Source of the DNA: Nemertoderma westbladi
Taxonomy: Eukaryota > Animalia > Xenacoelomorpha
Reading direction: 5' to 3'
Length of the DNA stretch: 64,000 nt
NCBI GenBank assembly: GCA_032718475.1
Contig: JAUCBJ010006988.1
Coordinates: forward strand, 146,075-210,074
This document shows, one piece after another, positions 3,250-55,416 of the stretch. The notes under the pieces are model-generated. The model was not told where the DNA came from and did no database searches. It saw nothing but the letters and a program-made list of their open reading frames with translations. How positions within the stretch are numbered: position 1 is the stretch's first letter; each line of letters starts with the position of its first letter. The translations under genes and the position numbers were made by a program.

Positions 3250-3585
3250 GATCGTCTGATTGCAGTGTAGGCAATAAATACAGTTTAATATTGTTCTGGT
3301 AAAAACAATAACAGTTATTGCTTCTGTATTGCAGTAGGCAATAAAGCTGAAGTACCGGTCGACTGGTACCTGGTAGGCCTGACTTCCTAACCACCCGGAC
3401 CGGTACTTATAGCAGTACAGGTACAGCAGTATTATTCGATTTTGATAATTATATACCGGTAGGCCTTAATATTTAATCAGGGACTGCAGCCCTGGTTTTT
3501 TATTGAGATTTTACTTATTTCTGTCAGTTTTATTTATTTGTAGGCCAATATTGAGCAGAAGACGTGTAAGCCTGCTCAGATTGTA

Positions 3586-27719: not shown

Positions 27720-29485
27720 TGCCGAATCAAATATAAAATCGCGGTAATAACATACTGTATAAATGCATATATGGGACTGCACACCGGCATATCTCTCGAA
27801 ACGCCTGAACCCGTACACACCGTCTAGAAATCTACGGTCTAGGGAGTGCAGACTGCTAGCGATCCCCCGATATCGGCTTAATCAGTACGGAAAACGAGCG
27901 TTCTCGGTGTCGGCCTTCACTACGGAAAGCGAGCGTTCTCGGTGTCGGCCGTCACTACGGAAAGCGAGCGTTCTCGGTGTCGGCCGTCACTACGGAAAGT
28001 GAGCGTTCTCGGTGTCGGCCGTCACTACGGAAAGCGAGCGTTCTCGGTGTCGGCCGTCACTACGGAAAGTGAGCGTTCTCGGTGTCGGCCGTCACTATGG
28101 AAAGTGAGCGTTCTCGGTGTCGGCCGTCACTACGGAAAGAGAGCGTTCTCGGTGTTGGCCGTCACTACGGAAAGCGATCGTTCTCAGTGTCGGCCGTCAC
28201 TACGGAAAGCGAGCGTTCTCGGTGTCGGCCTTCACTACGGAAAGTGATTGTTCTCGGTGTCGGCCGTCACTACGGAAAGCGAGCGTTCTCGGTGTCGGCC
28301 GTCACTACGGAAAGTGAGCGTTCTCGGTGTCGGCCGTCACTACGGAAAGCGAGCATTCTTGGTGTCGGCCGTCACTACGGAAAGCGAGCGTTCTCGGTGT
28401 CGGCCGTCACTACGGAAAGCGAGCGTTCTTGGTGTCGGCCGTCACTATGGAAAGCGAGCGTTCTCGGTGTCGGCCGTCACTACGGAAAGCGAGCGTTCTT
28501 GGTGTTGGCCGTCACTACGGAAAGCGAGCATTCTTGGTGTCGGCCGTCACTACGGAAAGCGAGCGTTCTCGGTGTCGGCCGTCACTACGGAAAGCGAGCA
28601 TTCTTGGTGTCGGCCGTCACTACGGAAAGCGAGCGTTCTCGGTGTCGGCCGTCACTACGGAAAGCGAGCGTTCTCGGTGTCGGCCGTCACTACGGAAAGC
28701 GAGCATTCTTGGTGTCGGCCGTCACTACGGAAAGCGAGCGTTCTCGGTGTCGGCCGTCACTACGGAAAGAGAGCGTTCTCGGTGTTGGCCGTCACTACGG
28801 AAAGCGATCGTTCTCAGTGTCGGCCGTCACTACGGAAAGCGAGCGTTCTCGGTGTCGGCCTTCACTACGGAAAGTGATTGTTCTCGGTGTCGGCCGTCAC
28901 TACGGAAAGCGAGCGTTCTCGGTGTCGGCCGTCACTACAGAAAGTGAGCGTTCTCGGTGTCGGCCGTCACTACGGAAAGCGAGCATTCTTGGTGTCGGCC
29001 GTCACTACGGAAAGCGAGCGTTCTCGGTGTCGGCCGTCACTACGGAAAGCGAGCGTTCTTGGTGTCGGCCGTCACTATGGAAAGCGAGCGTTCTCGGTGT
29101 CGGCCGTCACTACGGAAAGCGAGCGTTCTTGGTGTCGGCCGTCACTACGGAAAGCGAGCATTCTTGGTGTCGGCCGTCACTACGGAAAGCGAGCGTTCTC
29201 GGTGTCGGCCGTCACTACGGAAAGCGAGCATTCTTGGTGTCGGCCGTCACTACGGAAAGCGAGCGTTCTCGGTGTCGGCCGTCACTACGGAAAGCGAGCG
29301 TTCTCGGTGTCGGCCGTCACTACGGAAAGCGAGCGTTCTCGGTGTCGGCCGTCACTACGGAACGTAAGCGTTCTCGGTGTCGGCCGCTACTATTTGGAAT
29401 TCACTTCCACGAGAACTGCGCGATGCTCAATTTCTATCAATTTTAAAAAGTAAATTAAAAACACATATTTTTAACCTAAAATATA
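27720..29485 (+). mobile_element. 3' fragment of an L2/CR1-group LINE ORF2, split by a satellite
   Basis: RIKYKIAVITY / PAYLSKRLNPYTPSRNLRS..LLAIPRYRLNQYGKRAFSVSA before the array and ATIWNSLPRELRDAQFLSILKSKLKTHIF after it, the typical L2/CR1 ORF2 C-terminus. Confidence 0.85.
27886..29386. repeat. 35-bp satellite (tacggaaagcgagcgttctcggtgtcggccgtcac), ~43 units
   Basis: Head-to-tail units with no spacers. The variant series recurs at a 630-bp (18-unit) offset, e.g. 28140/28770. Confidence 0.97.
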
Positions 29486-30710: not shown

Positions 30711-31822
30711 TACTACTACTACTACTACTAGGATCGGCATGCCTCATTTTTAAGAATGCCCTGCCGGCTTGTCGACAAAATTGCGCCGCCACAACTCCCT
30801 ATCACCCATGACATTTGCTAGATCAGCCGCATCTTCAATGCCAGTGTCCTTTAAGATGCGTCTCAAGAAAGTCATGGGCTGTCCACCATGCTTATTCACT
30901 CCATGAGGCTGCTAAAGTACAAGATTAGGCACTGGCTGGTCCTCACGGCGAAACCAAATGTCCTGCAAAGCGGAGGCGATTTTGTTCTAGTGTCAAGCTT
31001 GGGGGAACCAATGAGAAACCTCCAATGTTATATAGTTTCTGGTTGGAGATGTGTGCATTGTACTTGACACAATGAACCCGGTGTAGCATTCTTGTGAATG
31101 TACCATCCAGAGATTTGGTGTCCTCAGCAGTTAGAGCCCAGCATGGACTTCCATAGAGGAGTACATGAACTACTGCTGCTCTAAATAATCGGACCTTAAG
31201 TTTCCGATTAATTATCGGTGACTTCCAAATCCTGGAAATCCTATTCAAGGCTGCCCATGCGTATTCGAAGGTATTCGAAGGTCCTCACCTAACTTCCGGA
31301 TCCATGATCCCAGGTAACAGAAGTCGTCCACATGCTCAAGCATACCATCCTTTGAGCTTATGCTCATCCGATCAGAGACTTGCTGAGGACTTTCAAAGTT
31401 AACTGTCAAAATTTTGGTCCTTCTGGAGTTAATTTAAAGACCAACACCAGAAGCAGCATGTTCTAATGAGCTGAGGAGCCGTTGGGCTCCCTCTAGTGAT
31501 TCTGAGAGTACTCCTAAGTCATCAGCAAAGTCTAGATCAGTTAGGTACTTGGCAGGATTTCCTCGACTTCTGGTGTCAGTAGGTGGAGTTAGTTATCATC
31601 ACCCCATCTTCATTATGATGATCTAAGGACATGCGTAGAACATAGTCAACAACAATTATGAACAAGAATGGTGCAAGTGTGTATCCCTGGAGGACGCTCC
31701 ATAACACTTCAAATGGTTCTGTGTCACCGTCAACAGTAGACACAAATGTTGTGGAACCATCGTATACTGATCTGATTGCTGCAATAATTTCATCAGGAAT
31801 CCCATATAATGAAAGTATGCTC
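30711..31822 (-). mobile_element. 5'-truncated, decayed RTE-like non-LTR retrotransposon
   Basis: The minus strand encodes VLQGYTLAPFLFIIVVDYVL, DLDFADDLGVL and KVRLFRAAVVHVLLYGSPCWALT...RLRFAGH, with a (TAG)n 3' tail at 30711-30730. Confidence 0.85.
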
Positions 31823-32501: not shown

Positions 32502-33618
32502 TGTAAAAGCTTTTGCGGACACAACAAGTCATTTTTCCCCGCAACGTACCGTGTAGGTGCTTTAGCGGACATAACAAGTCATTTTTGCCGCAATGCGCCT
32601 AATACTCTAAAAGACTGGAGCTCAGATGACGAAATCTGTCAGCTGATTTTCTGTAAACGTGGAACCTCTTTGTTCTGCTCAGCCAATCAGAGCGATTTTC
32701 ATTTTATGTTGGACAAGGGCCTACGGAAACCCGCGCAATGCATTACGGTCTTTGTTTACCTTTTCTGAGCCTCAGAACACCGGCTAAGAATTCTTCTGTG
32801 CTTCTGTAGAAGTTAGAGACTTTGGCCAAAACATTAGATGGCTTTGATTACAAGAACGTAAATCTATTATCTGAACAAACTACAATCCAAACTGCTGAAC
32901 TGACTTGCATAAGTAACATATTGATGGTTCACCGCACTATTTTACTTTTGTTTACTGTCTGTTATTAATTGTTGTATATTGATGGATATGTTGTTATATT
33001 TGGAGAATACCGATAAATAATCATAAAACCCCAATCTTCTTGATTACTGAAGGTAAGAGGGACCGGTTACCTGTAGCAATTGCGACTTACATTATAGTTA
33101 TTTTGTGTGAATTAAATGCTATTTCATAATCCCTACATGTGTCAGTCGCTATCCTCCTTATATATGATCAAATTCAGTGACGGTCGGCAGATCAGTGTGA
33201 AGTAGTGTGAAGTCGTGTGAAGTAGTGTGACAGATAATAAAGCATCTCCTAAAGAATGCGCTATTTACGAAACTCAGTGGCCATCTCGTTGTGTTTAGTA
33301 TAAGTCATAACTCTGTTTTATATACTTAAAGAGCCACGTCCTAAAGGAACTGTTAATATTTCCCCGAAAGTGAATAATATTGTCAGAAATTATATAGTAA
33401 CGATCAATCGAATAATACAGTAGGTCTGCACCGCAATAACTTTCAAAGCACCCGAATCCAGTCTCCCTTAACAGTGGGTGAATAATCGCGCATAGACTGG
33501 CTTCGGCTAATGTAACTTCATGTGCACCAAATAATTGTTATAGGCTAAAGTCGATTTATAAACAAGAGGACAACTAAAATTGGCAGGTTAAACTGCTAAA
33601 GGTCTGAAAGCGAGAACA
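32502..33618 (+). repeat. 5' LTR of copy 2 (1117 bp)
   Basis: TGTAAAAGC...gaaagcgagaaCA; matches the 3' LTR with roughly 15 differences by manual count. Confidence 0.95.
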
Positions 33619-33629
33619 ATAATAGATTT
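33619..33629 (+). promoter_or_regulatory. Non-tRNA primer-binding site candidate ATAATAGATTT (complementary to LTR 32860-32870)
   Basis: Exact reverse complement of AAATCTATTAT at 32860-32870. Pairing extends past a small internal loop (gttctt with aagaac). Confidence 0.72.
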
Positions 33630-35592
33630 TGTTCTTTATTGCACAGTAGGCAATAAATATAGTTGTCTATTGTTCTGGTAAGAACAATAATAGATTTTAG
33701 TTTCGTTATTGCACCGTAGGCAATAAAGTCGAAGGTACCGGTCGAACGGTAAGCTGTAGGCCTAACTGCCCAACTACCCGAACTGGTACTTACAGGTACA
33801 ACATTATTATTCGATTTTGATAATTATATACCGGTAGGTCTTAATATTTAATCAGGGATGGCCGCCCTGGTTTTTTATTGGGATTTTACTTATTTCTTTC
33901 AGTTTTGTCTATCTGTAAGTGTAATATTGAGCAGAAGGCGTGTAAGCCTGCTCAAATTGTATAAATAATTTGTAGGCTGGATTGTTGTCTAGCTGTTGTT
34001 AGGTCTGAAGAGATTGCAGTGTGTGTAGAGTGTATGTCCAATAAAGTACTAGTTAGGAAGGTGGGGGCATCCAGTGTTGTAAGGTAAATCCCCCACGAAA
34101 GAATAAGTCGTACTACTCGGTTAGAACGCCTACTAACTACCCATTTTGGAGTCTGCGTATACTTTAGTTTATTTAGGCTTGACAGTAGTCTGCCAGCATT
34201 TGGTCTGTATTTTGTTTATATAGTCTGCACGGGTAGCGTAATATTTATTATTCAGAGTATATTCGAGTATTCGCAACCTACAACCCCCAAGTTTATTCCT
34301 ACAGTAATTGTGCTTGTTATACATACCGTTATAGTTGAATTAACCCCGGTACTACATCAGGGCTGCTTGGCGTAGGTAAAGACTGGTGATTGTGTGCTCC
34401 GGTCACTCCAGCAGATACCTTGGTTCTTTTGGCTGTTCAAGTACATTTAACTGCTGGTTATTTGTTGTATAAGTACTTGTACCTAATTTAGGGTTTAGTG
34501 TACAGTGCTTTCCGAAAGTAATTAGTGTGTAGGCAGTATATTTGTGTTGTAAAGTGGTTAATAGGCACGTTAGCTCTGGTTGGCTGCGGTAATTAACTTC
34601 TAGGTAAGGACACTCCGGGTACATAACGTAGTACTTATAGTTTAAGACTATAAGTCGTCAGACGGTGGTATTTTCTTATCTGGACAACGCAATTTACTTA
34701 CTACTGCTTTATTGTTTTCAAATACCTTAGTTCCTGTCAGTTTGTAATAACCAGAAATTCTAACTCCTTTTTAGACTGGTTTGTAGATTTCTTGTAAAAT
34801 TACCCTAAAATTTGTACGTGTAACTTTTGGTGTTTATTTAGAGATTGTAATCTCACACTGTAATTGTAAGTAATTTGTAGTAATAAGTAACTTAGTAGAG
34901 TGGAGGTGTCTGTATTTGTGTCTCGCATGCTACTTGTTGGACACTAATACAGATAGTTCTGCATTGCTGGGCGTGCAGCTTTGTGGAAGTGATCCCTTAT
35001 CCAGAAATAATAACATTTATTTCAAACATTGTCAAAACCCATTTTACGGGTATATATATATTATAAATCAACTCAAACAGATTTATAAAATAGTAGGCCT
35101 GTTATACATCAATTAGGTCTTAATATCAGTTGAACTACTGCTTAAATAACAGTAATAAAGTAAAAAGGAAGTAACCCTAAAATTCAGAGATTCAGTTATT
35201 ATAAAATAATTGACATTACCGCTATTTAAGGTAGGCTTATTATATTTATTATATAAATTTAGGCTGAAATTATATACCGGTATTCTGTGACTAATCCTAG
35301 TCTATAATAATACTTATACTATAGGTGTATACCGGTATTTACAGCAGGCTTATTATATATATTTATATAAATTTAGGCTGAAATTATATACCGGTATTCT
35401 GTGACTAATCCTAGTCTGTAATAATACTTATATATATACTACAAGTATACCGGTATTTAATATATTAATATATATCGTGTTACACTGAGTAACGGCATCG
35501 GTAATTAATCACTAGGCTTGCAGCTGATACTGAATTACTAGACTTACTTTAACTGTCGTTATAGTAGTAGGCATTCAACTATCAAATAAATC

Positions 35593-38500
35593 ATGGCTGA
35601 CATAAAACAAAACACTGTCAGATAGTCTCCTCGAAAGAACAGTCTGTGACTCAGATAGAAGTATAAAAAATTGGAGACCGAAGTCCAAGTCCCCTCCTAC
35701 TGTAAGAAAGTTCATCCCTACAGTAGTAGTATCAGACCCTAGGCTAGTGAAGCACCATAGGTCTATCATAGGCACTAGGGCTCAAGTCAAGCGGGACCAA
35801 GAGGCCGCTGTTAAACAGCAGCAGCACCCAAACCGGGAACTTATTTCTCAGCGGCCCGATAACTCCAGTAGTTCAGACACTGTAGAGTTGACACCCGAGA
35901 TCGGAGCAAAGATGGCAGAAGAGGTTTATCCGGATCCACTTCTAATTCTTCCTGGAGCCGTACTCACTAGAGTGTTGATAGCTGTGGAAGAACATCAAAT
36001 CGATTGGGCGAGAAGTAAGCGATCGACCAAGGACAGTTATGCGGGATACACAATGGAGGAACTGAAGTCTATTGTCGAGACGCAATGGAACTTCCCCGGA
36101 CCCGGACTCCCGTTTAACTTATCGGAAGCTGCCTTGGAGGACTTATACAGGTTGGGAGTAGTAAGAGACACTCGAGATCCAGCTGTCTGGAAGAGGTCGG
36201 CAGCGGGATATGTCCAGGGATTCTTCAGCTCTTTGGAGCGCTTAGAGGAACACCTGTTTCAACAACGTCAAGGACCTCAAGAGCAGGGAGAGCTGCTTTA
36301 TCAAGTTCAAGAACGAATTTTACGGATCAGACTAATCCTTTCGGCCTTTGAAGAAGCTTCGAAGAGAAGCCAAGACACGTCGTTGCAAGTGGCCATAAAA
36401 ACTTGGTTCCAACGGGTGAGTCTTAAAGTCCAGGGAACGACACAATGGAAAGCTCAGCTAACCGAGCATATGACCCACGGAGAATCAACAGACGCTACCT
36501 TTTCTCAGGTGGAAAGCGAAGCTATATCAGAGAAACCTCAGAAGAAGGACGCTATTGACATCTTATCTGTCGGACTATCAACGATTTATAGGTGACAAAT
36601 AGCTAAGGAGACGGCTAGCTGGACTTCATCCTAATAGTGAGGGAGCCAAATTTGTGTTGGACTCGTTAGATGTGGAAATATTAGCCGCGGAACAGGCTAA
36701 ATTTGATGAAAGCATCCTCATGGTAATGGATCAAGAAGAACAATTAAAGAAACGGCAAATAGAAGACTGAAAGTCTGCAGCAGCGGTGGAATCTGAAAGA
36801 AAAGCAGCAGCAGCAGTGGCAGAGGCAGAGGCTGAAAGGAAAGCAGCAGCAGTAGCGGCAGAGGCAGAGGCTGAGAGAAAAGCGGCAGAGGCAGAGGCTG
36901 AGAGAAAGGCGTCAGCAGCAGCGGCAGCGGCAGAATCTGAAAGGAAAGCGGCAGTGACAGAAGCAGAACTGAAAGCTTCTGAAGTGACTACCCAACTAGA
37001 GCTGGAGAACCTTCAGGCGAAACACTATTACTTGAGGAAACAAAGGACAGCTACTCAGATGCAGTTGCTAAGTAGATCTACTCCCAGGAGACAGGGATTT
37101 ACATCTTCTGATGAAGGCGATACAACCAATCCTGAAGGCGGAGGAAATATATCTCGTTCCAGCGGACGTAGAAGAATGCCACACCGTCAGAAATTGCCTA
37201 ATTTGCCCCCAGCTGTGAGAAGACAACTAGCTAGTGTAGACTTAGGAAATACAGAATCCACAGACCAAATTATTAGAGTAGAAAGACTCCCTACTATAGT
37301 AGATGGCCTGAAATAATTAGGCCTGTTCTCGAAGCTACCCCCTCTGTGATAGAGACCCCTGTACTTCCAGAACCTAATTCTAAATTCCCTTTGCACAGTA
37401 CTAAACTACCTGTGCCCAGTAGAATAGCCCCTGAATCAATCCCAGTCCTGGACGCCGAGCAAGACATCAACGATTTGTCGCCAGTCGTCCCTCGTCTACC
37501 CGCTACTATGTTGGCGGCTCCCACTTCGGCGGTAGAGTGTGTGGATGAGGGACGGCGGGAGATGGGTCTCCTGCTCGGGCAGCTGAAGGAACATCGCATA
37601 TGTTCATCCCAGCAGGTCCAGGAGTTGGAAGGGACTGTTCAGCAGTTAAAGGGAACAGTAAGAGAGGGTAAGTTAGAGTTTCAAGAAGTGCAGCAGAGTA
37701 TCGCGTTAGAACGCGATAAATTAGTAAATATACAATTGGGTATACCACCACCCCCTGTAACAATGTGTCAACCTGTTAGGTCTGAAGTATTTCATGCGCA
37801 AGGTGTGGAGCCTACACGCATCTATACTGCTAGTGAAGTAGAAACTCCTATAGTTAACCCTATTAAGGTTAATTATAAACCCGTTGATAATGATATTCCA
37901 TATAGACCTGATCCTAATATAACTCGATATTAAATAATACGATGGCCCAAGAAAGTTTTACGCGTCAAATGGCTAGAACCGAAGCCCGTCAAGCGGTAAA
38001 GGTGGGAGAGATCGTCAAGTTCAATGGAGATGAGATGAAATGGTTACCTTTTAATGAGTATTATAAAGTTAACATACAGAACTCTGTACTATCTAACGGA
38101 GAGAAACTTAGATTCCTCATCGAGTGCTTGGAAGGACCTCCCAAGTTAATGGCGTTAAAGTTTATTGGACATCCAGATGGATTAAGACAAGTTTGGGATA
38201 CACTCAACATCAGGTATGGTAATAGGACTAATATAGCTATGTATTTGTATGCGAAATTAGTAGCGCCCCGAAAGTTCCTTAGCACCGGGATTATAGAGTT
38301 TTCCGATGAGATTCAGGAGATCTGTAGACAACTAGATTGGTTAGGTAAGTCTCATGAATATCAGAGTTCCATGGTTGTTGGAGCCGTAGCATCTACTTTG
38401 CCAAAGGGTGGAGTAGGTACTCGTTGGGACAAAAGAGTTCTCTATATGATGGACCAGCAACAAAGAGACCCTACCATGGCTGATCTCATGTCATTCTTAA

Positions 38501-41500
38501 ATGGAGAGGTAAGATTGCAGCTCCTAAAGCAGTCCCGAGAGAAGACCCCGGAGAATAAGGTGAGTGAAAAACCCGTTTCTAGGAGAAAGGTAACACCAGT
38601 GTGTTATACAGACGACGGCGAAAGCCAAACCTCCCACGAGGAGAACAGCGGGAAAGACACCGAAAGATTTTACTATGTCAACAAAACACAGAAAGACGTA
38701 AGTAAATCTAAGTCTCGAACCGGTAAGACAGAGAACAGGTAACAACAACTCCTCCTACGTCTCCTAAGAGAATTCATGGAAGAAAGCCCGAGGAAAGAAC
38801 AAGTGTGCACAACACCACACAAGTTAAAGTAAGTAACATCAAACCCAAATGTGCATTGTGCGACGGGCCCCATCGTTTAAGTGGATGTGATGAATTCTTG
38901 AAGAAATCCCTAAAGGATAGACGTGACGTCACGTGGGATAAGCGGTTGTGTTATAATTGTCTCAGACAAGGACACCAATGGCGGACCTGTTACTCAGACA
39001 CGAGATGCGCTAAGTGCGGTGCGAAACATCATATCTTGCTGCACACAGAATTTGAAAGAACCCGCACGAGTCAGGTAAGTGAGCCCGAACTACATGTCCA
39101 ATTCAATGATGTGAACGACACTGACCACAGCTCTGAGATTGAAGGATTTTACACAGATGAATTCTCCGACGAAAACGAATCCTGTTATATGATAAACACC
39201 GCAGTGTATCGAGCGCTTATGTATGAGACTGAAACCAATAACGAAACGCAACTGACTATTCCGGACCGACAACCATCTTGGAAAGCGCCAACTTCCAACA
39301 TCGGAATCCGGGAATTCCCGGTGGATCAGCTGAGAGTCCATGGGCTAGGTAAGAGTTTTATAGTAAACGCCCTCCTTGACTCCGGCAGCACAGGAACATT
39401 CATCGACAAAGAACTAGCCGAAGACATCTTTGCTGGACAACCCAAGTTCCGAACTTAGTTGAACCTTTCAGGAATTATTCAGGTTTGGAAATCCACAGTA
39501 GCTACAGACTACTATGCAGGCGCGTTGTCCACTCCCCAGGATGAACTAGGAGAACATAGCATAAGGTCAGTAAAAATGGTGGCGATAAAGAACTTTGCTA
39601 CCAGCCAAGTAGAACCTTACAACTGGGATGAAGACCATTTTACCCAGCAGCATGATATCCCTAGATTCAACACCGACTACACAGGGGTGCAGATATTGAT
39701 CGGCCAAAATGCGCATGAGGCGCTTGAGAAACAGAAAAACGGCCTGCTCGACCGCAACCATTACAAACATATGCGGGAAGAACGAGAGTAGGTTGGTACT
39801 TCACTGGACCTTCCCATAGAACACTCATGGAAAGACTACCTAACGAAAAGGTACATCAGGTGAGTGAATGGGAAGAAGAAATCAGTGAGGGAGAGACCAC
39901 AACTGTGGGAACACCATACTCCTCAGATAATGACGATATTAACCAATTATTTGACGAGGAAAATACAATCGACCTCCTCACCGAAAATGAAACTTGGCGA
40001 AACCAAGTAAACCTGTGCCATCTCATCAATCATGGCGGACAATTCGACTACAATGACGAATTAAATGAGGTGATAGATCGATACAACAATAAGATTCGCG
40101 ATGAACATACCGTACGATTCTTTACTCAAGAAGCCGTAGAGCCTAATTCCTACGACAAGGCCCTGTCCATCGAGGAGGAGAGAGACAAGCAGATTCTGGA
40201 AACGACTACCCGTTTTCTTAAAGATCAAGGTCGCTATGAGATTGGTCTTCCGTTCCGACGGCGAGAACCCAACTTTTTAAATAACAGACCTTTAGCGGAG
40301 AAGAGAATCGCGCAACTACATCGGCATCTTACGGCAAATGCTTCAGCTAAGGAAATGTATAAGACCCAGCTGAAGAAATTTATCGACAAGGGATACGCGG
40401 AGCGAGTGCCGGAAGAAACACCCATCACAGAGAGAACATATTATCTAACACATCATTACGTTCCCAAACCTGGTAAACACAACGAAGTCCGGGTAGTGTT
40501 CGACGGCTCCGCCCTTTACATGGGACAATCCTTGAATTCCGAATTGTTGCCTGGACCCAACTTACTCCAATCCTTGTTGGGAATACTATTAAGATTACGG
40601 CAATATTCTATCGCCTTCGCCTCGGATATAGAAGGCATGTTCTTACAAGTCAAGGCGCTGGATAGGGATCGAGACAGCCTACGATCTCTGTGGTGGCCTG
40701 AAGGAGACCTCAACCTAAAACCGGTGGAGTACTGGATGACCATCCAGGCATTTGGGATCATCTCGAGTCCCTCGAACACTTGTTCAGTAGTGCGTACCAC
40801 TGCTGATGACAACCAAGACACCTTCTCTAAAGCGGTTATCGACAACATCAAACGGGATATATACATGGACGACAATTTAAAGTCCCTCCCATCGGTGGAA
40901 GAAGCCATTGATGTTGCCAAGGGAATGGTAGAGTGCTTGAAACGCGGTGGAATTCGACTAACCAAATTCACTAGTAACTCCCGTGAGTTTCTGGAATCGA
41001 TCCCGGTAGAAGACCGAGGTGTTAAAGATCTGGACCTCATCAAGGACGATCTTCCGGAAACCAAGACGCTTGGTTTGAAATGGGACACGGATAGAGATAT
41101 CCTGTTTTTACAGCTAAAACAGCGAGATAATCCAGTTCGAACTAAATGGATTTGTCTAAGCATCCTGAGCACTTATTTCGATCCATTGGGATTTATTAGC
41201 CCAGTTTTATTGGTTGCTCTGAGCTTAGTGCAACAAATGTGGCTTGAAAACCACTCGTGGGACGATCCACTTAAGGGAGAACTGCTAAAGAAGTGGATGA
41301 AATGGGAAGATTCTCTACCTTCCATCGAGAACTTTATTATTTCCCGTTCATATTTTGGTCACGTTCTCCCCACGTATTCCTATCAACTCCATGTGTTTGG
41401 AGACGCCAGCGATATGGGAATAGGTTGAAACTCCGGATGGAATTAAAGTTGCCTTGGTTACCTCTAAGGCCTTGATAAAAAACAAGCTACGAGTTCCTCG

Positions 41501-43710
41501 AGCGGAGTTAAAGGCGGCTCTATACGCTACAGCCATCGGCCGGAATGTAACAGAACAGATCAACTATCCACTGGAGAAAACTGTCTATTGGACTGATGCT
41601 TTACTCGTTTTGGAGTATATAACCAATGAAGTCTGTCAGTTCAGCGTCATCGTTACCAACAGAGTAGCCATTATACTTAGTCGCACTAATGTAGATCAAT
41701 GGAGACATTGCCCTGGGACGATTAATCCAGCCGACATCGCCTCCAGAGGAGCAACTCCTCAAGAACTGATAGATACTCCAGACTGGTTAGGTGGACCCGA
41801 CTTCCTAAGTAAAGAAGAGGATGAATGGCCTCCTCATCTCACCACGGCTGAGATTAGACAAGCCAAGGGAGCGGAGAAAGTCAAACCCAAAACCCGGATG
41901 AGTAAATCAAAGTTATTTAAACCCGTGATAGATCTGTCTGTCCTACACATTTCCGGGGACGACGCTGTGGATCTAAACTTCCCCGCCACAAATAAATCTG
42001 TTGTGGAAATTAGAGAAAGAGACTGGAAATCTGGAACACCAGACGTCTCACAGGGACTCTCACCTCTCCTGCAGAGAGCGATAAATCACTATAGCTCCTG
42101 GAATCGGCTTTGTAAGGACGTCGTGTATTTGAAGCGATGCTTCCATCATCACTACTCCAGGACGAAGATCGCTAGTGATACCGCTCCACTGACATCCGTG
42201 CAGGTCCATGCTATTAAAGATCTTCCCAAATATAAAGTATCGGATAGGTTTCTGACGGAAAAGATCAGTTATCAAGAGCATGAAGAAACCAATAAGCAGA
42301 TACTGAGACTCCTGCAATGCTATGAAGATTCCGATAAGTATTTCCTGTTGTTGAAAAATCCACAGACGCCCTTAAGGGATCGTTTCTACGTTAATACGTG
42401 TTGGAGGGAGATTAACTAATGCTCCATTATCCTTTGACACTAAGTTTCCCATACTCATTAGAAATCTTGAAATACAAATCAAGATGATTGTAGATGTTCA
42501 CAGTAGGCTTTACCATGCTGGTAGAGAACGAGTTCTTAGCGAAATTCGAACTCGATATTATTTCCATAAACCCCGTAGAGCTCTGAACCAAGTTCTTAGG
42601 AACTGTATACCCTGTAGGAAAGCATTCAGTAGGCTTTTAACACAGCGAGAGGCAGAATTACCTTGGGAACGAGTAAGCTTCTATGAACCACCCTTTACTA
42701 ATACTGGTGTGGATTTATTTGGCCCTATTGAAGTATATCGTGCTAGGACTATAGTCAAGCGATGGTGTGTCATCTTTGTCTGTATGACTTGTAGAGCGAT
42801 CCATCTAGATATGGCGAACGATCTATCTACCAACAGCTTCATACTGAGTTTACGCCGACAGATCGCTCGCTTTGGAACTAGCAACACGATGAGATCTGAT
42901 AAGGGAACGAACTTCATTGGCGCCAATAATGAGATCAAAGCTTATGTTAAAGATTGGAACCAAAGACAGGTGGACGATCAGCTAAGGGTAACAGCATCTA
43001 GCTGGACCTTCAACGCCGCCGACGCCCCTTGGTGGGGAGGAAGTTGGGAGAGATTAATAAGGAGCGTGAAGACCGCATTTCACTTTATAGTGCCATGCCG
43101 CGCGTATCTCACCGACGAACTTTTGCGGACGTTAATGGAAGAAATCGCTGCCTATCTTAACGAGAGACAGCTTATGCCAGTCTCATCGAGTCCCGACTCC
43201 CTAGAAGCGCTAACACCTGCACATTTCCTACTAAAGAAACCTGTAGCCATTCTCCCACAATCGGAAATCACGGACGGAGACGAATACTGCCGACAAACTT
43301 GGCAACTTATGCAGTTATTATCCCGCCGTTTCGCTGACCATTTCGAAAAACATTATCTGCCTGCGCTACAACTTCGAACCAAGTGGTTTGCGCAGCAAGA
43401 AAACGTCAGCGCTGGAGACATGGTCCTTATTGTGGAAACAGATCTTCCACGTAAGCGGTGGCAGACAGGTCGTATCATCGAGACTCATATATCCGATGAT
43501 GGTTTAGAGCTATCGGTAGAACTCGTCGTCATGCGACGTAACTTTAAGAAACCTGGAATTGTATTCGAAACACAGCAACTCAATTGCCCAGTTGGTCGTT
43601 TATGTTTACTGGAAAGAGACAGAGAACTATCCGGAAACTATGGAAGGCAAGATACTCTTCCCACGACCACCTCCCTAATCCAACAAACATCTAGGGACTC
43701 CCCAACGTAA
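35593..43710 (+). pseudogene. Disrupted BEL/Pao gag-pol polyprotein (copy 2), ~2700 codons
   Basis: Knuckles CALCDGPHRLSGC, CYNCLRQGHQWRTC and CAKCGAKHHILLH; aspartic protease ALLDSGS (~39369-39389); RT YMDD (~40862); RNase H LHVFGDAS; integrase DLFGP/SDKGTNF/WERLIRSVK. Several frameshifts and stops. Confidence 0.94.
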
Positions 43711-45321
43711 CAGCGTCTGGAGTGGGTGTGTGACTATATTATTTTATATGTTTTTATTATTTTATATTTATGTATGTATTATTATGTAATTTTATTATAA
43801 TCGTTTTCTTTAATTTTATTTAGTAGAATGTTATTTTAGCGATTATTTAGTAGTTTAGTGCAATATACATACTCGTGTTTATTACTTAATTACTTAATAT
43901 TATATATTTAGTGCAACGGCGAGAAATAAATTTTTTTTCTTTTTCCTTACTGACCGTATCATATTATAAATGCGTGACTACAGTAAGATGAAATATCCGT
44001 ACTTATTAAAGTACAATAAAGCTCCTACTATACTCAAGTATTATTGGTAAGTAGAGTATTAGGAATGCAACGAATTGCAACAAGGAATGCAATTAGGAAA
44101 CGACTTGCCTCTTCTCACTGACATTGCTCCTTGCAATATTGCTCTCATACCGTATATTAAATAATACATATAGTAGCGTGATGTCCCTTTAACAGTAGCG
44201 TAGAACGCAAAATAAATCTGTTAAACCCTTTGACCATCTGTAATTCTAGTCGATTAAGATATCGCGGCACTCACCGATATACTTGAAAGACAAAATTCTA
44301 GTATCAGTGGTTAAGGTCCCCAGACAAGTTCTGGAATAATTCGGTGCCCATCTTAAATATTAATTATTTAATATTTACAAAAATCTATTAAAACAAATGC
44401 CATAATAGAGTAAATGCAGACAAATAGACTCTAAGGAGTTTGTAAACCAAGAAAATCTAGAAATCCAAAATCTGTTAAAATTCAGATCCTTTAAAATTCT
44501 AGTCGATTAAGATATCGTAGCACTTACCGATACTCTTAAAAGGACAAAAAAAAATTGTGTCTATTTTAATATTAAACAATAAAATTTACGGGAATAAATT
44601 TTAAATTCATATCCTCTCATGAATTTGATAAATTGTCATTTTATACAATTTATAACATTCCCAAAATTCCATTAATTAATAGATCATGGGAGCGGAGATT
44701 CACCCTATTAAGTATATTAGTGTGCGAGAATCTCCAATATCTAGTCAATAGCCGATAAATAGCATCCCAGATCTGTATGCATGAGAATTACCCTAATTCT
44801 ACTGCTAGCTTCCCATAATGTCACCATAGCAACAACCACGCTAGAATTAGAAGCGAGTTAAAAGAACAATAGAACGCTTGCCCCATTGAGTAGCATACGG
44901 AATAAATAGCACACTGCTAGTATCCAGGGATACATAATAATAACATGGCATTCTGGAAGGCACTTGACTAACGGACAAATGGCCCGAATGTGTACAATTT
45001 GTGACAGTTGTGTGGAATTTGTGCGTTTATAGGTGAATGTTACTACTAAAGTGTGTTTACAGTAGCGAGTCGCAGTTGTGAAAGTTGCCCTACCTCTGTA
45101 GCAAGAACCTGAAGTAATTCTGAGCCCTTGGGACGGACAGTGGAGTGATTCGCGCTGGTTATTGTTGTCGTTGTGTAGCTACTACGTTGGTGAGAGGCAC
45201 AGCGACGACAGTACATCAGCGCTGAGGATCTTGCGCTGTCCGGGGGCATTGAGGGGGAGGCAGCGACGACCGCTAGCCTAAATATAATTAATTATAATAT
45301 CAATAAACTCATATAGCAGCT

Positions 45322-48300
45322 ATGACTGCGTTGATAGAAGATGATCTTGGTATCAGGGAGTGATATACCATACCATTGCAAGCGTTTGTTGATAGTTTAA
45401 TACGCGGCGACGCTAGTCAACCCACTACGGAGGACGATGGCCGTTATATCGAACCGCCAATGTCAAAGGAACAGCTCACGTGTGAATTGGACTATAGAAA
45501 ATTCACCGCTCACTATACGCATCGTAATGGTACGTATATGGACTTCTTAACTACTGGTCACCCTATCGATTTACACGATATGGACGATGTAGACACCGAA
45601 AGGGAAATAATCCTATTTAAATATCATACCCAGCGGAGTCGGAACGATAAACTGAGAATCGAACACGAAAATTCTATTCGCAACCAACTCGAAAGAGAAA
45701 ACGTTGAAGAGCCGGATAAACGCAGTGACTTCAACGAATATCTGGAATTCTTGAGAGAAACATATCTCAATATTGCCAGTCAACAAAACCTAGAAACTCG
45801 ATATCCGCAAAGTATACATCATGACCCTATGATAGAACTCAAACGACTCTATTTCACTATGATGTATCTTACCGCCGATCGACCGCTACCTGTTGTACCA
45901 GATAGCTTCAAACAGATGGAGGAGTATTGTAAAACTGGAGAAAGATCACCCGCATTTCCTCTACAAGACGTGCGTCTTTGGTATTATTGCGATGAATGCC
46001 CTAGACCTAACCAACAAACAGAAAGACATAAACATCTGCGGAGACGTTGCGCTAAACACAGTTTTACTCGCTATACTTACGGGAGTTTCGAGCGAAACTT
46101 GTTCGACGTATCACCTACGCTCTCTCGACTCAAACGATCCTTAAATAAACCGATGATCAGAGTTCCGGAATACTCGGTCAGACCTCCTCATTCCCTAGTG
46201 AGACCTCAAACTCTTGATCCTAATAGTATAACGGATCCTGCTGAACTGTACTCACTGTTCAAAGATCTCGTGTTACCCGAACAATGAATCGGTGGCACTC
46301 CGGTAGTGGGCTCTTATGATATTCGCCCATCTTACCTAGCCGGATTGGGACGCGGACATTTAATATCGCCGTTTAACCCGTATAATCGTCCCGGTCTAAC
46401 CCCGATACAACCCGTCACCGAAGTCGAGGAGAGTGTTGTACGAAACGCGTTAGACGCTATTCGGCAAAAGATCGGAAAAGGAACTTACGATTGTTTGGAG
46501 AAACGTAAATTGCAGCAGCAAGTCCAAGCGGTAAAAGAATTAGCTTTACCTCAGTTCGATCGGGAAATCTCGAAGAAGATATCGAACTTGGACGAACCTA
46601 CTCTCTACAAGAGTTTTTGGACGAACGCTTCCAACGACAAGCGGAGGAAAATCAGCTCGAGGTGAAACACATCGAAAGGGATAAGAGAGAAGAAGCAGCT
46701 TTAGCCCAACCAGAAGCTCAAATCCTTATGACTGACCTGTACAACCTCAATCGGTTGATATCAACCTAAGATCTCGAGATCTTATCGCTGACGCTCCTAT
46801 GTTACAACGTCCGCCAATCGAGGCCGCTCGTGTCGACGGTATACTCGTTGAACCACCGGACAATCGAGCGGATCTTATCCGTCGTATGGTACACGAGGTC
46901 AACCTACGCGCTAGACCTTTACCGAACTCGTTTTATGGGATCAAAGACGACCCTTATTATGTCAATCTAACTCAATATTATATGGTAAAACCGGAAGATC
47001 CTACACATAGTCTAAGGTTTTTACCACTAATAAATCCCCTCGATCTTGTCGAACTCGAACAACTGCAGAAACATCTGGATCAGTTAGTGAAAATAAACTC
47101 ATTCAGAAAACCCTACAATGTTTCCAGAATAGAGAAGGATATAATGCCTCCGTATAATCTCGATAGATTTATTAAAACTCGATTAGTCCACTGGAATATC
47201 GACGTATTATTCAGGAAGAGAGAATACAACGATATGGAGATGTAGAGACGTATACTACACAGTATCTGAAGTATAGGGATCTACCTAACGCTAGCGAATG
47301 CGCCACCTTGTGGCATCCGGTGGGGATGACCCTAGAAAACGCCACTAAAGAGTGGAACGAAACTCTTAACGTTATTGAAATGTATGGAGTTGTCACTTAC
47401 GATAACGAAGGTAGCGTTCCGGTTGGAGAACTGGGAACTACGCTCATGATACATATATGAGGACTAGCTGGTTCTACCCACGTGTTTACTCGAGCGTGTT
47501 CTGACGTGATTGATTATTCTTTTGAGACTCTCACCGAGATACAAAAGAAACTCCGACATGGACAATTCGAACTCGCGCAGCGCTACGTCACCGACACCGA
47601 GCGCAAACCGGCCATGGGTATAGATGGATCGATGTTACCCCAGCCAGTGCTCGAGATGTTGTTTAACGAAAGAATCCTTAAAATCGGCTCAGCTGTTTAT
47701 GGAGATCTCCAAAACGACTTCAGGAACATGGAGAATATCCCATATCCTTTCGTAGACACCCAGCTGATTGCTCCCTGGGCAGAAGGCCGAGGTTTCTTCC
47801 GCACTATGTATGCCAATACATCCAGCGGCATCAATAAAATACAACGAACCTCCATCGGACATCTTGCCTTTCAAGAATACGGATGGAATTTCAAAGTCGG
47901 AAACCCTATCAACTATCAAAAAGTATATGGAGATCATTATTCTCGATTATACTTCGACGGAAAATTGACCGCACCTGGCATCGTTTATAGCTTTATGAGT
48001 GTTCCACTTCGTCCCTCATTAGCTATATACACTATCTTCGAGAACGCCGCACTTGCTGGTTGGCTAGCCGATGTGTGCAGTCGTACTATACGCGCCCATC
48101 CTTTGATACTTGGAACCAAACTCGCCAAGCTAGATGAACACAATAAATTCATCCGCTTCGAATGCTTTAGGCGCTTTCTGACTCCGTTCCGTAACGTTGA
48201 TAGTCAGTTCAAGGACCGCGCTCTGACCAAGCTCAGCCTAAGAGACTCAGCTGCTGAGAAGTTAGACAGCGCTGGATTCGCCATTTTCAAGGACGTTTGT

Positions 48301-49500
48301 TTACAGAACTTACATTCCTCTGTTATACAAAGACCCCGAATCCCCACGGGTTATTCTATCGTGGAAGTTCAGACAGTGGGTTCGCTTGAGGAGACAGCTA
48401 TGCCTAACTCAGCTATGCAATTGGAAGACGAACCAATTTGTTTAGAGTCCAAGGAGATTCAACCCACAGCGCCTAGGAGCAGTGACAACGACTACGTCCT
48501 GGAATGGTATAAGGTCCACAATGTCTCACCGCATACGATTATCGGCATGCCAATTATGTTTCTAGGAAACATTGCCGATTATGCGCATCTCGAGACCACT
48601 TCACCCCGGTGGACTCCAACGTACCCTGCTCCTACTTCCATGACCAACCTACGATGGAGATCTATTGTGCATATTGTAGACTCAATAACTTACACATTTT
48701 CGCAGTCTGCCCTCAATTTATGACTCAATGCCATCATTGCCAGTTTAAAGGACACGCAAGTTTTAATTGCCCTTTCAACCGAGATCTGGAAAGCGTAGAT
48801 GAAATGATTACCCTACACTACATTCGAGCCTGGGAAGCGAACGCGGATCGAGTCACGTCATCGATAATACCCTGGACGTGCCTATGAAGGAGTTTATGCA
48901 TTTCACCCGTATCTATTTGCTTCCGTTGAGCAAAAATCTCGCACACCGAGTTATGAACTAATGAAGCGTGTTGGCGAGAATATTTCGACCAAATTTGTTC
49001 GTAAATATCTCAGGAACATTAATCCCAATGATCTTAATTCCTATAACTTGATCAACTTCATCCGTCAAGATCCGGAATATGGTGACTTGTTCATCAACTC
49101 GCATCCAGAACTACAGGAAGTTCATAGACGACCCTATGACTATAGAGCCCGAGAACGCGAGTTAGAAAGAACCATCAAACCGAGGAAATTTCTCGCTTCT
49201 CACGGTCCACCTACCGCTCTCGTGCAGACGACTCGTCAGGGACCAGTAAGAGTAAGAGCTGCTGTCTTGAAACGCGCTCTGAAGGTTGTTCGACCTCGCT
49301 CCACTGAGGTTGATATCGATCAACCGGGTACCTCGACCGGCGGATACACCGACCGTAACCCTAAACCTTCCGATGCAATTGTATTGCACCCTTCACCCAG
49401 GAGTTATAGCCCTCCTAGTAAAATGGCTCGCCCCAAAGAGAAAAGGACTCTTGCTAGCTTCAAAAAACTGCGTAAACGCCGTTCACGTAAGAAGGACTAA
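45322..49500 (+). pseudogene. Extra retrotransposon ORF (~1390 codons): DEDDy 3'-5' exonuclease-like domain, two zinc knuckles and a basic tail
   Basis: The six ORF-track pieces join through three in-frame TGAs (45361, 46285, 47458) and about five frameshifts. Exo I VVTYDNEG (D 47401, E 47407), Exo II LPQPVLEMLFNERILKIGSAVYGD (D 47704), Exo III PLRPSLAIYTIFE (Y 48028, E 48040). Knuckles CAYCRLNNLHIFAVC and CHHCQFKGHASFNC; C-terminus KKLRKRRSRKKD. Confidence 0.75.
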
Positions 49501-49569
49501 CTGTTTAGAGTATTTTTATATTTTAGAAACTGTGCTTTTTATATTTTATAGAATTAAATCCCATTTTCT

Positions 49570-49577
49570 GGGAGCAG
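49570..49577 (+). promoter_or_regulatory. Short polypurine tract candidate (GGGAGCAG)
   Basis: Purine-rich 8-mer abutting the TG of the 3' LTR; short and imperfect. Confidence 0.45.
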
Positions 49578-51347
49578 TGTAAAAGCTTTTGCGGACATAA
49601 CAAGTCATTTTTCCCCGCAATGTACTGTGTAGGTGCTTTAGCGGACATAACAAGTCATTTTTGCCGCAATGCGCCTAATACTCTAAAAGACTGGAGCTCA
49701 GATGACGAAATCTGTCAGCTGATTTTCTGTAAACGTGGAACCTCTTTGTTCTGCTCAGCCAATCAGAGCGATTTTCATTTTATGTTGGACAAGGGGCCTA
49801 CGGAAACCCGCGCAATGCATTACGGTCTTTGTTTACCTTTTCTGAGCCTCAGAACACCGGCTTAGAATTCTTCTGTGCTTCTGTAGAAGTTAGAGACTTT
49901 GGCCAAAACATTAGATGGCTTTGATTACAAGAACGTAAATCTATTATCTGAACAAACTACAACCCAAACTGCTGAACTGACTTGCATAAGTAACATATAT
50001 TGATTGTTCACCGCACTATTTTACTTCTGTTTACTGTCTGTTATTAATTGTTGTATATTGATGGATATGTTGTTATATTTGGAGAATACCGATAAATAAT
50101 CATAAAACCCCAATCTTCTTGATTACTGAAGGTAAGAGGGACCGGTTACCTGTAGCAATTGCGACTTACATTATAGTGATTTTGTGTGAATTAAATGCTA
50201 TTTCATAATCCCTACATGTGTCAGTTGCTATCCTCCTTATATATTATCAAATTCAGTGACGGTCGGCAGATCAGTGTGAAGTAGTGTGAAGTCGTGTGAA
50301 GTAGTGTGACAGATAATAAAGCATCTCCTAAAGAATGCGCTATTTACGAAACTCAGTGGCCATCTCGTTGTGTTTAGTATAAGTCATAACTCTGTTTTAT
50401 ATACTTAAAGCGCCACGTCCTAAAGGAACTGTTAATAATTCCCCGAAAGTGAATAATATTGTCAGAAATTATATAGTAACGATCAATCGAATAATACACG
50501 TTCGTGGGGCCTTCGCGCAGCACGAGGCCCAGTTATGAGATACAAATTAAAATTGTGCGACTGTATCACAAAATCAGGTTATGAGAGATTAACCCACACC
50601 ACCAATTAATCAAAGAAAGGGGGACAGTACGTGTTCACCCCTTTTAATCTGTGGTGTGGCTAGTTGCCACCGGTCACGCGGTCAGCCGGTACCGGTAGTA
50701 GGGTGGTACCATGGCCTACTACACACAGGCCATGACAAGGACTTGCCGTGAAATTAGCGTAGGCTGACTGATGAATTATCAAATATTATATTTTCCACGA
50801 ATGCAGGGTTCATATTTAAAAGAAGATGACTAGATTTTCGTAAAGAATTTAATTGAAACAGTATTTAATAATTAATAAATTAATTATCGCTTGAGTTCCT
50901 GCAGCTTTTATTCGTTTGTGGCTGCCTCTGGCTATGTTTGTGGCAGGAATGTTTGAACGCTAATAAGTCGGTCAATCATGGATGAAATGGAACCAAACTT
51001 GGTACTCATGTAGTCTATAAAAAATTTAGAAATTCTACACACAGACAGACTTCTACAGTTCCCCAGTCTGCCGCTAGGGGGCGAATTAACAGAAACGTAA
51101 AAATAGCTGTAATTATAGAACCAACGATCAGATTCATCTGAAATTTAGTAGTAGTTACCTAAGAGCATTGCTTAATTAGAAATTCTACAGAGACTTTTAC
51201 AGTTCCTGTCTGCCTCTAGTGGGGAATTGTTAGAGCTCCAGTTCAACGTGCTTAGCACGGTTTAATAAACAATCAATTAATTATTTTATTCAATACAGTA
51301 ATTATAACAGTAAAATGCAATGTATTCTATTTTTTAGTGAAATCAAG

Positions 51348-52602: not shown

Positions 52603-53165
52603 TGGTTTTATAATAAATAAGGGGATTCAACAGTTCAATGCTAAAACAAATGGATTATTCCTAACCCCACCCCAATACAGCAATATACCTAACAGTATAT
52701 AGCTTTGCAGGATTCTCGATTCAGGGATTGAGTACAGCCTGACAGTACCGGTACACATGGTAGGCCTACATGCAGAATTGCAAAATTTGTCAGAAAACCC
52801 AGCTGATTTATCCTACAGTAATAATAATTTAACGCATTTTAAATTTGGATAAACAAATGTATTATAACTGCAATAACAGTTACACTGATGCTGCACGAAG
52901 GCCCCACGCAAATTCTACTTGGAAAATTTTCAAACTTTTGCCAAACAACATGTGTACCAAGTTTGGATAGATTTCATCAAGGATTGGCCGAGTTATTAAC
53001 GTTTAAAATAAAATACTGAAAAAAAACGCGACAGAACGACAGAACGACAGAACGACAGGTTGATTAATGGTACCACTACGCTAAGGCTCACTCACTTCGT
53101 GGCTCGCCCCACAGTAGGTCTGCACCGCAATAACTTTCAAAGCACCCGAATCCAGTCTCCCTTAA

Positions 53166-54686
53166 GGGGGCGGTACACCACCTGGTGTCAAAAAATTGAA
53201 AAAAAATTTTTTTGCCGAATATTGTGTGAAATTTTATGTAGATTCCGAATCTGAAATCGGTTTTGTCATATCTCGATTGGATCTCGAGTTATACGTCTTT
53301 AACTGAGACCATGTTGACGGACAGACTGACAGACAGACCGACAGACCGACAGACAGTCTGGATAGGGTCAAAAGTGAAAACTGACAGCGGAAATGAAATC
53401 CTTGACCAGGAAAACCCCAATAGAGAGAATTTTAATTAGCTAATGTGATTCCTTATACTTTTGACGGACAGACCGACAGACCGACAGCCAGTCTGGATAG
53501 GGTCAAAAGTGAAAACTGACAGCGGAAATGAAATCCTTGACCAGGAAAACCCCCATAGAGAGAATTTTAATTTGCTAATGTGATTCCTTATACTTTTGAC
53601 GGACAGACTGACAGACAGACCGACAGACAGTCTGGATAGGGTCAAAAGTGAAAACTGACAGCGGAAATGAAATCCTTGACCAGGAAAACCCCCATAGAGA
53701 GAATTTTAATTAGCTAATGTGATTCCTTATATTTTCGACGGACAGACTGACAGACAGACAGACCAACAGACCGACAGACAGTCTGCATAGGGTCAAAAGT
53801 GAAAACTGACAGCGGAAATGAAATCCTTGTCCAGGAAAACCCCCATAGCGAGAATTTTAATTAGCTAATGTGATTCCTTATACTTTTGACGGACAGACTG
53901 AAAGACAGACCGACAGACAGACCGACAGACAGTCTGGATAGGGTCAAAGTGAAAACTGACAGCGGAAATGAAATCCTTGACAAGGAAAACCCCCATAGCG
54001 AGAATGTTAGTAGATTTTATTCTTTCTAAAGTCTTGACAGACAAACAGACAGAAATACTGACAGACTTCAGAAATTCATGAATTAGAGTTGGGCACTTGG
54101 GGGTTTGAATAATTTACAGTTAGGTACCGAAAGGGTTAAAACTTTAACCTCATTTTTCTCAGAATGTCATTTTTTGACCTCAAAAATGTATCTAGTCCGC
54201 CAATTTTCAATGAATTGAGCTGAAATTTGGAAAGTATCTCCAGACCGACGCACTCTTTAGAAATTGTGGTCAAATTTTTTTTTTTTAGCTTCGTTCGTTT
54301 TTTATTCAATGTTAAATGTAGAAATTTCGTGATTTTTTCGTTCTAAATGAAAAGTAATTTTTGATTGGCTATAAAAAAAGATCAAAACAAAATTTTAAAA
54401 ATTTGACCACAATTTCTGTTTATCATGACTTGGAGAATATGCACACCAAATTTCGAGCGAAAATAATTATAAATAAATATGTAGATAGGTTTTGTAATAT
54501 AGTCAATATTTATTAATATTAACTATTATTAAATTATTATAAATAGTTAATTCGAAAAAATTTTTTTGCCAAAAGTTGTATCTACAACCCAACTCTAATT
54601 GTGCCAATTTTCGAAAATACTTGACAATTTTGAAGCACACGACAATGATTTTTGTAAAAAATGCGCTTAGGTGGTGTACCGCCCCC
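53166..54686. mobile_element. Non-autonomous Kolobok-type DNA transposon (TTAA TSD) with internal ~150-bp tandem repeats
   Basis: 18-bp TIR GGGGGCGGTACACCACCT/AGGTGGTGTACCGCCCCC. TTAA is duplicated (53162-65, 54687-90) but single in the 5' LTR. RR...YY termini with a TTAA TSD fit Kolobok. Five gacag-rich units at ~53314-54010. Confidence 0.85.
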
Positions 54687-55416
54687 TTAACAGTGGGTGA
54701 ATGATCGCGCATAGACTGGCTTCGGCTAATGTAACTTCATGTGCACCAAATAATTGTTATAGGCTAAAGTCGATTTATAAACAAGAGGACAACTAAAATT
54801 GGCAGGTTAAACTGCTAAAGGTCTGAAAGCGCGAACAAGGCCCTACATGGAAAAAAAATGTTCATCATCTTTTTCCAATATTCTCTCGAACCTTTATAAA
54901 CTCCGCTGGCGCCCGATAAATAAAATGCCTAGAGAATATTGAAAAAAGTTATTCTTTTTTCCCATGTAATAAATAATTATTTATATAACTTTTAGGAATT
55001 TTTAAACAACTTTTGCTAACGAAAATGGTGCTTTAGATAGTAGGGCCTACTTAGTTTGCTTTAATAGCATTTAAAAAAATTAAGTCAAAATATTATAATG
55101 ATAAGTTTGAAGTTATCACAAATTAATAATGTAAAACAAATATACTGAAGTCTAACTAAAATAACTTCACAATGGAAATTAGGCAGTGCAGTAGTGTATT
55201 ACCTACAATTACTTAATATTAATATAAATAATATAAATTGTAATATTAGCATTAATTTGTAAGCAATTAACGGGGGGGGGGGGGGGTATACCCCCCTTTA
55301 ACAAACTAAAAAACTAAATTCAATTTCAGCAAAGATTGGATAAATAACACAAATTTTAAAAGTTTACAAGGACTGAAGCATAAGAAGCTTCTTATAGGAC
55401 ATCAGAATAAATTATG

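Follow-up and report, generated by a model that had tools for sequence, protein, structure and literature searches.

Here we describe the third gene of a BEL/Pao-type long terminal repeat (LTR) retrotransposon found in a 64,000-nucleotide (nt) stretch of the genome of Nemertoderma westbladi (contig JAUCBJ010006988.1; this whole stretch is referred to as the window, and positions are those of its forward strand). The gene lies at 45322-49500 on the plus strand, between the integrase and the 3′ LTR of an 18.0-kb element at 32502-50498, and is very probably a carrier of a DEDDy-type (RNase D/EXD2-type) 3′-5′ exonuclease fold, a prediction that draws on profile comparisons and on the structure model of one distant relative. 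Three zinc-knuckle-like motifs follow the nuclease, and the pattern of changes in other copies of the element argues with good confidence that the gene is under purifying selection there. The third gene is a known kind of cargo, in a host superfamily that is new as far as we searched and with a new architecture. In the open-access literature, which does not include Repbase entries, we found no report of a nuclease as a third gene in BEL/Pao and none of a DEDDy third gene with zinc knuckles, and the word "exonuclease" is absent from the main text of PMC3118150 and PMC13524379.

A preliminary description of the region, made from the letters alone, had proposed 4.2 kb of coding-like cargo in this place, in six pieces that rejoin into one frame of about 1390 codons. 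The location and the length hold, with 1393 codons from ATG to stop, but the window copy consists of nine stretches, its frame shifting five times (within 46509-46665, 46736-46769, 47176-47245, 48513-48723 and 48868-48887) and being interrupted by three in-frame stops (45361, 46285 and 47458). This copy is dead. That the gene was once a single open frame is likely, because a score based on the codon usage of three stretches, when applied to stretches left out of its training, favors the expected frame at 46570-47460 and, weakly, at 48640-48820. The Exo I motif (47386-47412; Asp 47401, Glu 47407) is, as had been claimed, in the same frame as 47461-48723, with a TGA inside the nuclease domain (47458-47460) between the two. 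The Exo II region extends over 47635-47772 and comprises the Exo II block (47635-47709; Asp 47704) and a DTQ motif (47749-47772); a further motif of the preliminary description follows at 47851-47895. In Exo III (48004-48042), Tyr 48028 is retained and Glu 48040 replaces the usual Asp. The predicted catalytic set therefore reads D-E-D-E: the DxE of Exo I and the Asp of Exo II conform to the DEDDy pattern, and Exo III departs from YxxxD in its acidic residue while keeping the Tyr and a spacing, PL-x6-Y-x3-acid, identical to the PL-x6-Y-x3-D of RNase D.

The nuclease accounts for less than one fifth of the protein. The knuckles sit about 175 residues behind it (48573-48770) and read Cx2Cx4Hx8C (48573-48629), Cx2Cx5Hx4C (48666-48710) and Cx2Cx4Hx4C (48729-48770); the latter two had been recognized before, and the first had been overlooked. 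In Pfam this region reaches zf-CCHC_3 at E 0.003, below the cut-off. A Cys/His cluster read from the sequence of the N-terminal part (Cx2C-x9-HxH-x4-Cx2H, 45988-46059) has no family match in Pfam or NCBIfam, which assign no domain to the first 650 or so codons, and the basic C-terminal tail (49462-49497) is a candidate nuclear localization signal; these two, like every other motif quoted in the preliminary description, are found where it placed them. No membrane anchor or signal peptide was detected and, because the highest 19-residue hydropathy window reaches only 1.19, the predicted product is not an envelope protein, in agreement with the earlier view. We also considered the knuckles as a duplicate of those in gag and rejected this, as the two sets have no significant match.

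Identification of the nuclease depends on remote sequence similarity. Among the 18,950 NCBIfam models, the nuclease stretch of the window protein retrieved two rows, rnd (E 0.0081) and another model for RNase D (E 0.047), the former with a score of 15.5 bits against a curated cut-off of 299. A scan of 1.84 billion proteins yielded a sole relative, P0003 (E 4e-4; 29% identity to the window protein), a protein of 648 residues from a 9.4-kb contig that forms a protein cluster of one. No relatives were found in a word-based search among longer proteins or among viral contigs, metagenome contigs and phages, and a word-based search with P0003 returned only P0003. A two-sequence profile of the window protein and P0003 had matches at E <= 0.1 in 66 of 301 bacterial genomes, and 18 of the 20 top loci were RNase D. 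PF01612 was also run on 120 of these genomes, where at least 23 of the 27 profile matches overlap places of that family, a lower bound since 150 of the 299 such places were listed. We then compared this profile by hhalign with an independent RNase D-type set (n = 41; the E. coli protein and 40 others chosen by Pfam score where the profile had no match), which gave a probability of 90%, E 1.7e-6 and a score of 46.7, compared with a best score of 22.7 in 100 column shuffles. This set replaced an RNase D profile with E 3.6e-7 that was set aside because its loci had been chosen by the query itself. A hidden Markov model of the independent set ranks positions 47641-47775 of the window first among 427 chunks (E 0.0027). 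By sequence, the similarity is to RNase D in the Exo II region and not to WRN or MUT-7 specifically; the DEDDy-type fold first proposed is supported, and the possibility that no DnaQ-like match would appear, which would have spoken against a nuclease, was not borne out. In the two global alignments that P0003 leads, Exo I and Exo III fall on their RNase D counterparts, and insertions relative to the DEDDy family occur after Exo I and before Exo III. The five nuclease tests agree; they are not all independent, because several share P0003.

P0003 has the layout of the window protein: a D-x-E, an Exo II block, a Tyr-x3-Glu and, aligned with their counterparts in the window, three knuckles. The four acidic positions and the Tyr are common to the two proteins, and because Glu is present in both, this residue, as far as the two sequences tell, is a family trait and not decay. 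An open-access literature search found no report of the Asp-to-Glu change in Exo III of polymerase I. The P0003 knuckles resemble retroviral nucleocapsid (E 1e-4). Its PF01612 score is 11.9 bits, under the cut-off of 23.6, and by ESM features 24 of 30 hits fall in PF01612 clusters (up to 0.94), behind three unnamed clusters. Neither P0003 nor the third-gene protein has an HRDC domain behind the nuclease in its Pfam and NCBIfam rows. An unguided AlphaFold model built on the two sequences, P0003 first, has a mean predicted local distance difference test (pLDDT) score of 45, the N-terminal half being the better part. Foldseek matched this model to 36 chains at E <= 0.001, and all listed rows are DEDD-family domains, led by EXD2 (1e-5), RICE1, trypanosome RNase D (2e-4) and Nibbler, followed by Egalitarian, E. 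coli RNase D, RRP6 and EXD1. In a library of viral structures, the matches are DnaQ-like proteins of giant viruses. The structural check suggested at the outset therefore points to EXD2, through a low-confidence model of the relative. An RNase H-like fold with its three-strand start is seen in the model of the N-terminal half of P0003 and is indicated for the window protein by profile.

The region is present in four DNA runs from one organism and three studies; no RNA run is listed among those that contain it. Every one of the 30 bins across 44700-50600, both junctions included, is covered in each run, by 556 to 33,577 contigs, and 0-9% of contigs per run continue into unlike sequence, so the gene is found in many other copies and is not the one-off insertion that would have undercut the first proposal. 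No single contig spans the whole region, so the linkage of the third gene in other copies is an inference. The element family is a high-copy BEL/Pao retrotransposon. In each run the 47458 stop is replaced in at least 99.5% of the contig depth and is thus private to the window copy; it is the only one of the eight breaks to appear in the listed variant rows. These rows are 40 tool-chosen places of 1075, of which we used the 36 in the gene and dropped four in the spacer or behind the stop. Among those listed, 10 of the 11 segregating places (pooled share in runs X1-X3 below 95%, a threshold chosen with the table in view) are third-position synonymous changes, compared with third positions at 4 of the 25 copy-private places (p 1.3e-4; Fisher 3.7e-5; p 1.5e-4 against a 34% transition expectation). 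The changes, which could have looked neutral, are mostly synonymous, and the 11 places are scattered over 45807-49317; the data support a selection signal that covers the gene as a whole, not specifically the active site. In other copies, the nuclease has repeatedly been lost through internal deletions of 2.4-2.7 kb (e.g., 46666-49346 and 45684-48423), several of which begin near 46675; such copies are likely non-autonomous subfamilies.

Self-comparison of the window together with Pfam defines the host element. Its LTRs (32502-33419, 918 bp; 49578-50498, 921 bp) have TGTA...TACA ends and are 98.4% alike (of the 921 aligned columns, 12 show substitutions and 3 show gaps), and a short purine run (7/8 nt) lies upstream of the 3′ LTR. 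Gag-pol (35606-43710), traced by open reading frames and Pfam, is split into several stretches and runs in the order DUF1759, three gag knuckles, protease, reverse transcriptase region, Peptidase_A17, integrase zinc domain and DUF5641. DUF1759, Peptidase_A17, Integrase_H2C2 and DUF5641 score above the Pfam cut-off in that order, and the reverse transcriptase region was recognized by eye without a Pfam row. We take this set to be the marker domains of BEL/Pao, Peptidase_A17 being named for Pao in Pfam. LTR size (0.2-1.2 kb is expected), TG...CA ends and the order gag, protease, reverse transcriptase, RNase H, integrase with family-typical domains all agree with that assignment. The length of 18.0 kb exceeds the 4.2-10 kb given for Belpaoviridae genomes (PMC8742986), a range that is descriptive and no bar to membership. 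This copy may be recombinant, because the flanks of 32502-50498 differ and hold no target-site duplication. Rfam has no match anywhere in the element. A stretch in the gag region (36771-37000) is an alanine/glutamate-rich repeat and likely a coiled coil.

The 2.2-kb leader (33420-35605) does not start with a TGG-type primer-binding site: the first TGG lies 56 nt past the 5′ LTR, with none in the 55 nt before it. A sister BEL/Pao element at 2045-14847, which shares the LTR, gag-pol and spacer at 80-88% identity, has no TGG in the first 67 nt of its leader, and the commonest sequence continuing past the LTR in other copies is the same non-TGG start. Directly after the LTR, the two window elements share this non-TGG leader start (33420-33480 and 3043-3110). 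Self-priming from the element's own LTR was considered and discarded, as complements of at least this length also occur in shuffled sequence (in 344 and 494 of 500 shuffles).

The spacer of 1.6 kb that separates pol from the third gene (43711-45321) is shared by the sister up to 45266: positions 14338-14847 of the sister align with 44756-45266 at 93% and then end, 55 nt before the third-gene start. No second LTR of the sister lies in the window, and the third gene leaves no trace elsewhere in these 64 kb. Of 510 substitutions between the gag-pol regions, 338 are at third positions. The sister leader contains a tandem repeat (3586-4459; unit about 290 nt), and a piece made of the LTR end and leader of the 18-kb element recurs downstream of it at 53111-53165 and 54684-54838, with about 1.5 kb of repeat-rich sequence between. 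Elsewhere, degenerate inverted repeats (16123-16340 and 30750-30995) enclose 14.4 kb that hold a 21-nt array (about 16.5-21.9 kb), a 35-nt array (27882-29393) and, on the minus strand at 22410-23183, an open frame of 258 codons without breaks, which contains both the N- and the C-terminal cyclin domain and which we take to be cyclin C-like.

How might such a protein serve its element? We favor, at a probability of about 0.35, a reading in which the protein, through its exonuclease and knuckles, would bind RNA in single-stranded form and act on the RNA-primer complex of the element itself, whose 3′ ends it would trim. The gene would be expressed apart from gag-pol, from the 1.6-kb spacer or a spliced RNA; the three knuckles would hold single-stranded RNA and feed it to the nuclease site, as in the Trypanosoma brucei RNase D-type enzyme TbRND; and the D-E-D-E site would act by two-metal catalysis, which on its sequence we consider somewhat more probable than a failure to do so. 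The element's own RNA or primer is favored as the target for three reasons: the TGG with which a leader usually starts, and which pairs with the CCA end of a tRNA, is missing; enzymes of the RNase D type work at the 3′ ends of structured RNAs; and the P0003 knuckles resemble retroviral nucleocapsid. We further speculate, while regarding it as quite doubtful, that this BEL/Pao lineage gave up its tRNA-CCA site and that its own knuckles anneal a host RNA to the leader, with the DEDE exonuclease trimming the loose 3′ end back to the paired part. If this were true, the module of nuclease and three knuckles, also present in P0003, would be an unrecognized family of mobile-element enzymes.

Several observations weigh against this favored reading. 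The primer idea depends on one absent motif, and the significant sequence match spans only about 47 columns around Exo II. For the nuclease stretch of the window protein, Pfam, the check first suggested, has no nuclease match, PF01612 included; neither that stretch nor the two-sequence profile matches any PDB sequence; and a profile of 37 short stand-alone bacterial exonucleases gives no match. Alignments led by the window protein each place only Exo I or Exo III, and MAFFT misplaces the window Exo III. Because the strict YxxxD and cut-off tests fail, with Glu for Asp in Exo III, the predicted product is filed as a divergent DEDE variant and not as a strict DEDDy member. The P0003 model falls below pLDDT 50 from residue 120 on and thus leaves Exo III outside, and a single-sequence model of the window protein (pLDDT 33) gives no verdict on its fold. 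Lastly, beyond the after-the-fact choice of the segregation cut, only 1 of the 11 listed segregating places is in the nuclease core and none is in the knuckles.

An active nuclease could instead be aimed at the host, where it would degrade or over-trim PIWI-interacting or small interfering RNAs or their precursors and so loosen silencing of the family. This is a somewhat unlikely but substantial alternative: small-RNA enzymes (Nibbler, RICE1 and EXD1) are among the nearest structures, the basic tail suggests a nuclear, trans-acting protein, the family is abundant, and the occurrence of DEDDy domains in unrelated mobile elements would suit a general use (PMC5408684, PMC3706591). On the other hand, a suppressor acting in trans would aid all elements and so may be only weakly selected in its carrier, and the rotifer DEDDy genes have no clear tie to higher copy number (PMC5408684).

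Alternatively, a weak or dead nuclease fold could serve with the knuckles as an RNA-binding adaptor akin to EXD1 or Egalitarian, one that protects the RNA of the element or directs its localization, a view we consider unlikely. Pseudo-nucleases usually lose acidic residues, whereas here the four acidic positions and the Tyr are kept between proteins just 27% alike; EXD1 and Maelstrom have been described as inactive derivatives (PMC5408684). The exchange of the last Asp for Glu and the departure of the residue after it from the usual pattern would fit an adaptor, as would the small share of the protein that is nuclease and the presence of EXD1 and of Egalitarian bound to I-factor RNA among the structure matches. 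Glu in the fourth place is, however, used by RNase HIII and PhoExo I, enzymes with an RNase H fold that are more remotely related (PMC4538837). By analogy, that precedent shows that such a Glu is possible, not that a DEDE protein is active.

It is improbable that the protein is a DNA-end nuclease that acts on complementary DNA as it is synthesized or integrated, trimming its 3′ ends or mismatches. The structure search ranks EXD2 first, and EXD2 and WRN act on DNA; yet the sequence signal is nearest to RNase D among bacterial proteins, such knuckles mostly bind RNA, and integrase performs its own 3′ processing. A parallel in favor comes from Dada DNA transposons, whose DEDDy domains have been proposed to process cleaved 3′ ends (PMC3706591). 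Finally, the gene could be a passenger, either the decaying product of a single capture, of a host gene or of some unrelated element, or a sequence that resembles a nuclease by chance, but this is very improbable and already largely refuted: the eight breaks of the window copy, the end of the sister just before the gene, the lack of a target-site duplication and the many internal deletions across the gene would fit it, but gag-pol is broken as well, the stop in the nuclease is private to this copy, thousands of contigs from the four runs extend over every one of the 30 bins, no more than 9% of them entering unlike sequence, and the listed segregating changes are mostly synonymous.

Juno and Vesta of bdelloid rotifers are gypsy-type elements. 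Their third genes, which are shared with Athena elements, encode RNase D-like DEDDy exonucleases with DEED in place of DEDD, and activity was not assayed there (Rodriguez, Kenefick and Arkhipova; PMC5408684); reviews repeat this finding (PMC6431247, PMC5718144, PMC6338049), and the rotifer precedent named in the preliminary description is therefore real. Compared by description only, the window gene resembles these ORF3 genes of the Athena/Terminon pool in placing such an exonuclease behind pol in the position of env, in having no membrane segment and in its altered acidic motif. It differs in belonging to a BEL/Pao element, which Juno and Vesta are not, in reading D-E-D-E and not DEED, and in that its nuclease is part of a protein of some 1390 residues that also has a Cys/His cluster, three knuckles and a basic tail; the text covered on the rotifer ORFs mentions no knuckles. 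Within the PF01612 family (EXD2, WRN-exo, MUT-7/Nibbler, RNase D and RRP6), the fold and the order and spacing of Exo I-III are common with the window gene, which is set apart by scores below every curated cut-off, the fourth-place Glu, its insertions and, relative to RNase D and RRP6 proper, the lack of HRDC. TbRND likewise has a DEDD exonuclease followed by tandem CCHC knuckles and no HRDC (PMC7797062; PDB 7c42 series). Its knuckles bind RNA and raise cleavage, and their removal reduces both (PMC7797062), but TbRND is a cellular gene that trims the U tails of guide RNAs and has four knuckles about 30 residues behind the nuclease, whereas the window gene is mobile-element cargo with three at a far greater distance. 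The resemblance is likely convergent, with no sign of direct descent. Belpaoviridae with env-like third genes share with the window element the LTRs, the order and domains of gag-pol and the position of the third gene (PMC8742986; PMC3118150); the window element differs in its length, in having a predicted nuclease and not a fusogen, and in having no TGG-type primer site by the LTR. In Laccaria and Ectocarpus, DNA transposons of the Dada type are also mobile elements with a DEDDy domain, but there it sits within a DDE transposase and retains DEDD, in contrast to a separate third gene with DEDE (PMC3706591).

The gene bears on a general open question, the role of non-envelope third genes in LTR retrotransposons, and it shows that such cargo can be missed entirely by standard Pfam annotation. 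The rotifer DEDDy genes are low-copy and without clear selection, whereas here a selection signal is seen in a third gene of a different retrotransposon superfamily. Because the family is abundant and its third gene shows this signal and carries putative RNA-binding knuckles with a worked-out analogue in TbRND, the question of function becomes testable, as a choice between processing of the element's own RNA, countering of silencing and plain RNA binding that turns on one domain and four acidic residues.

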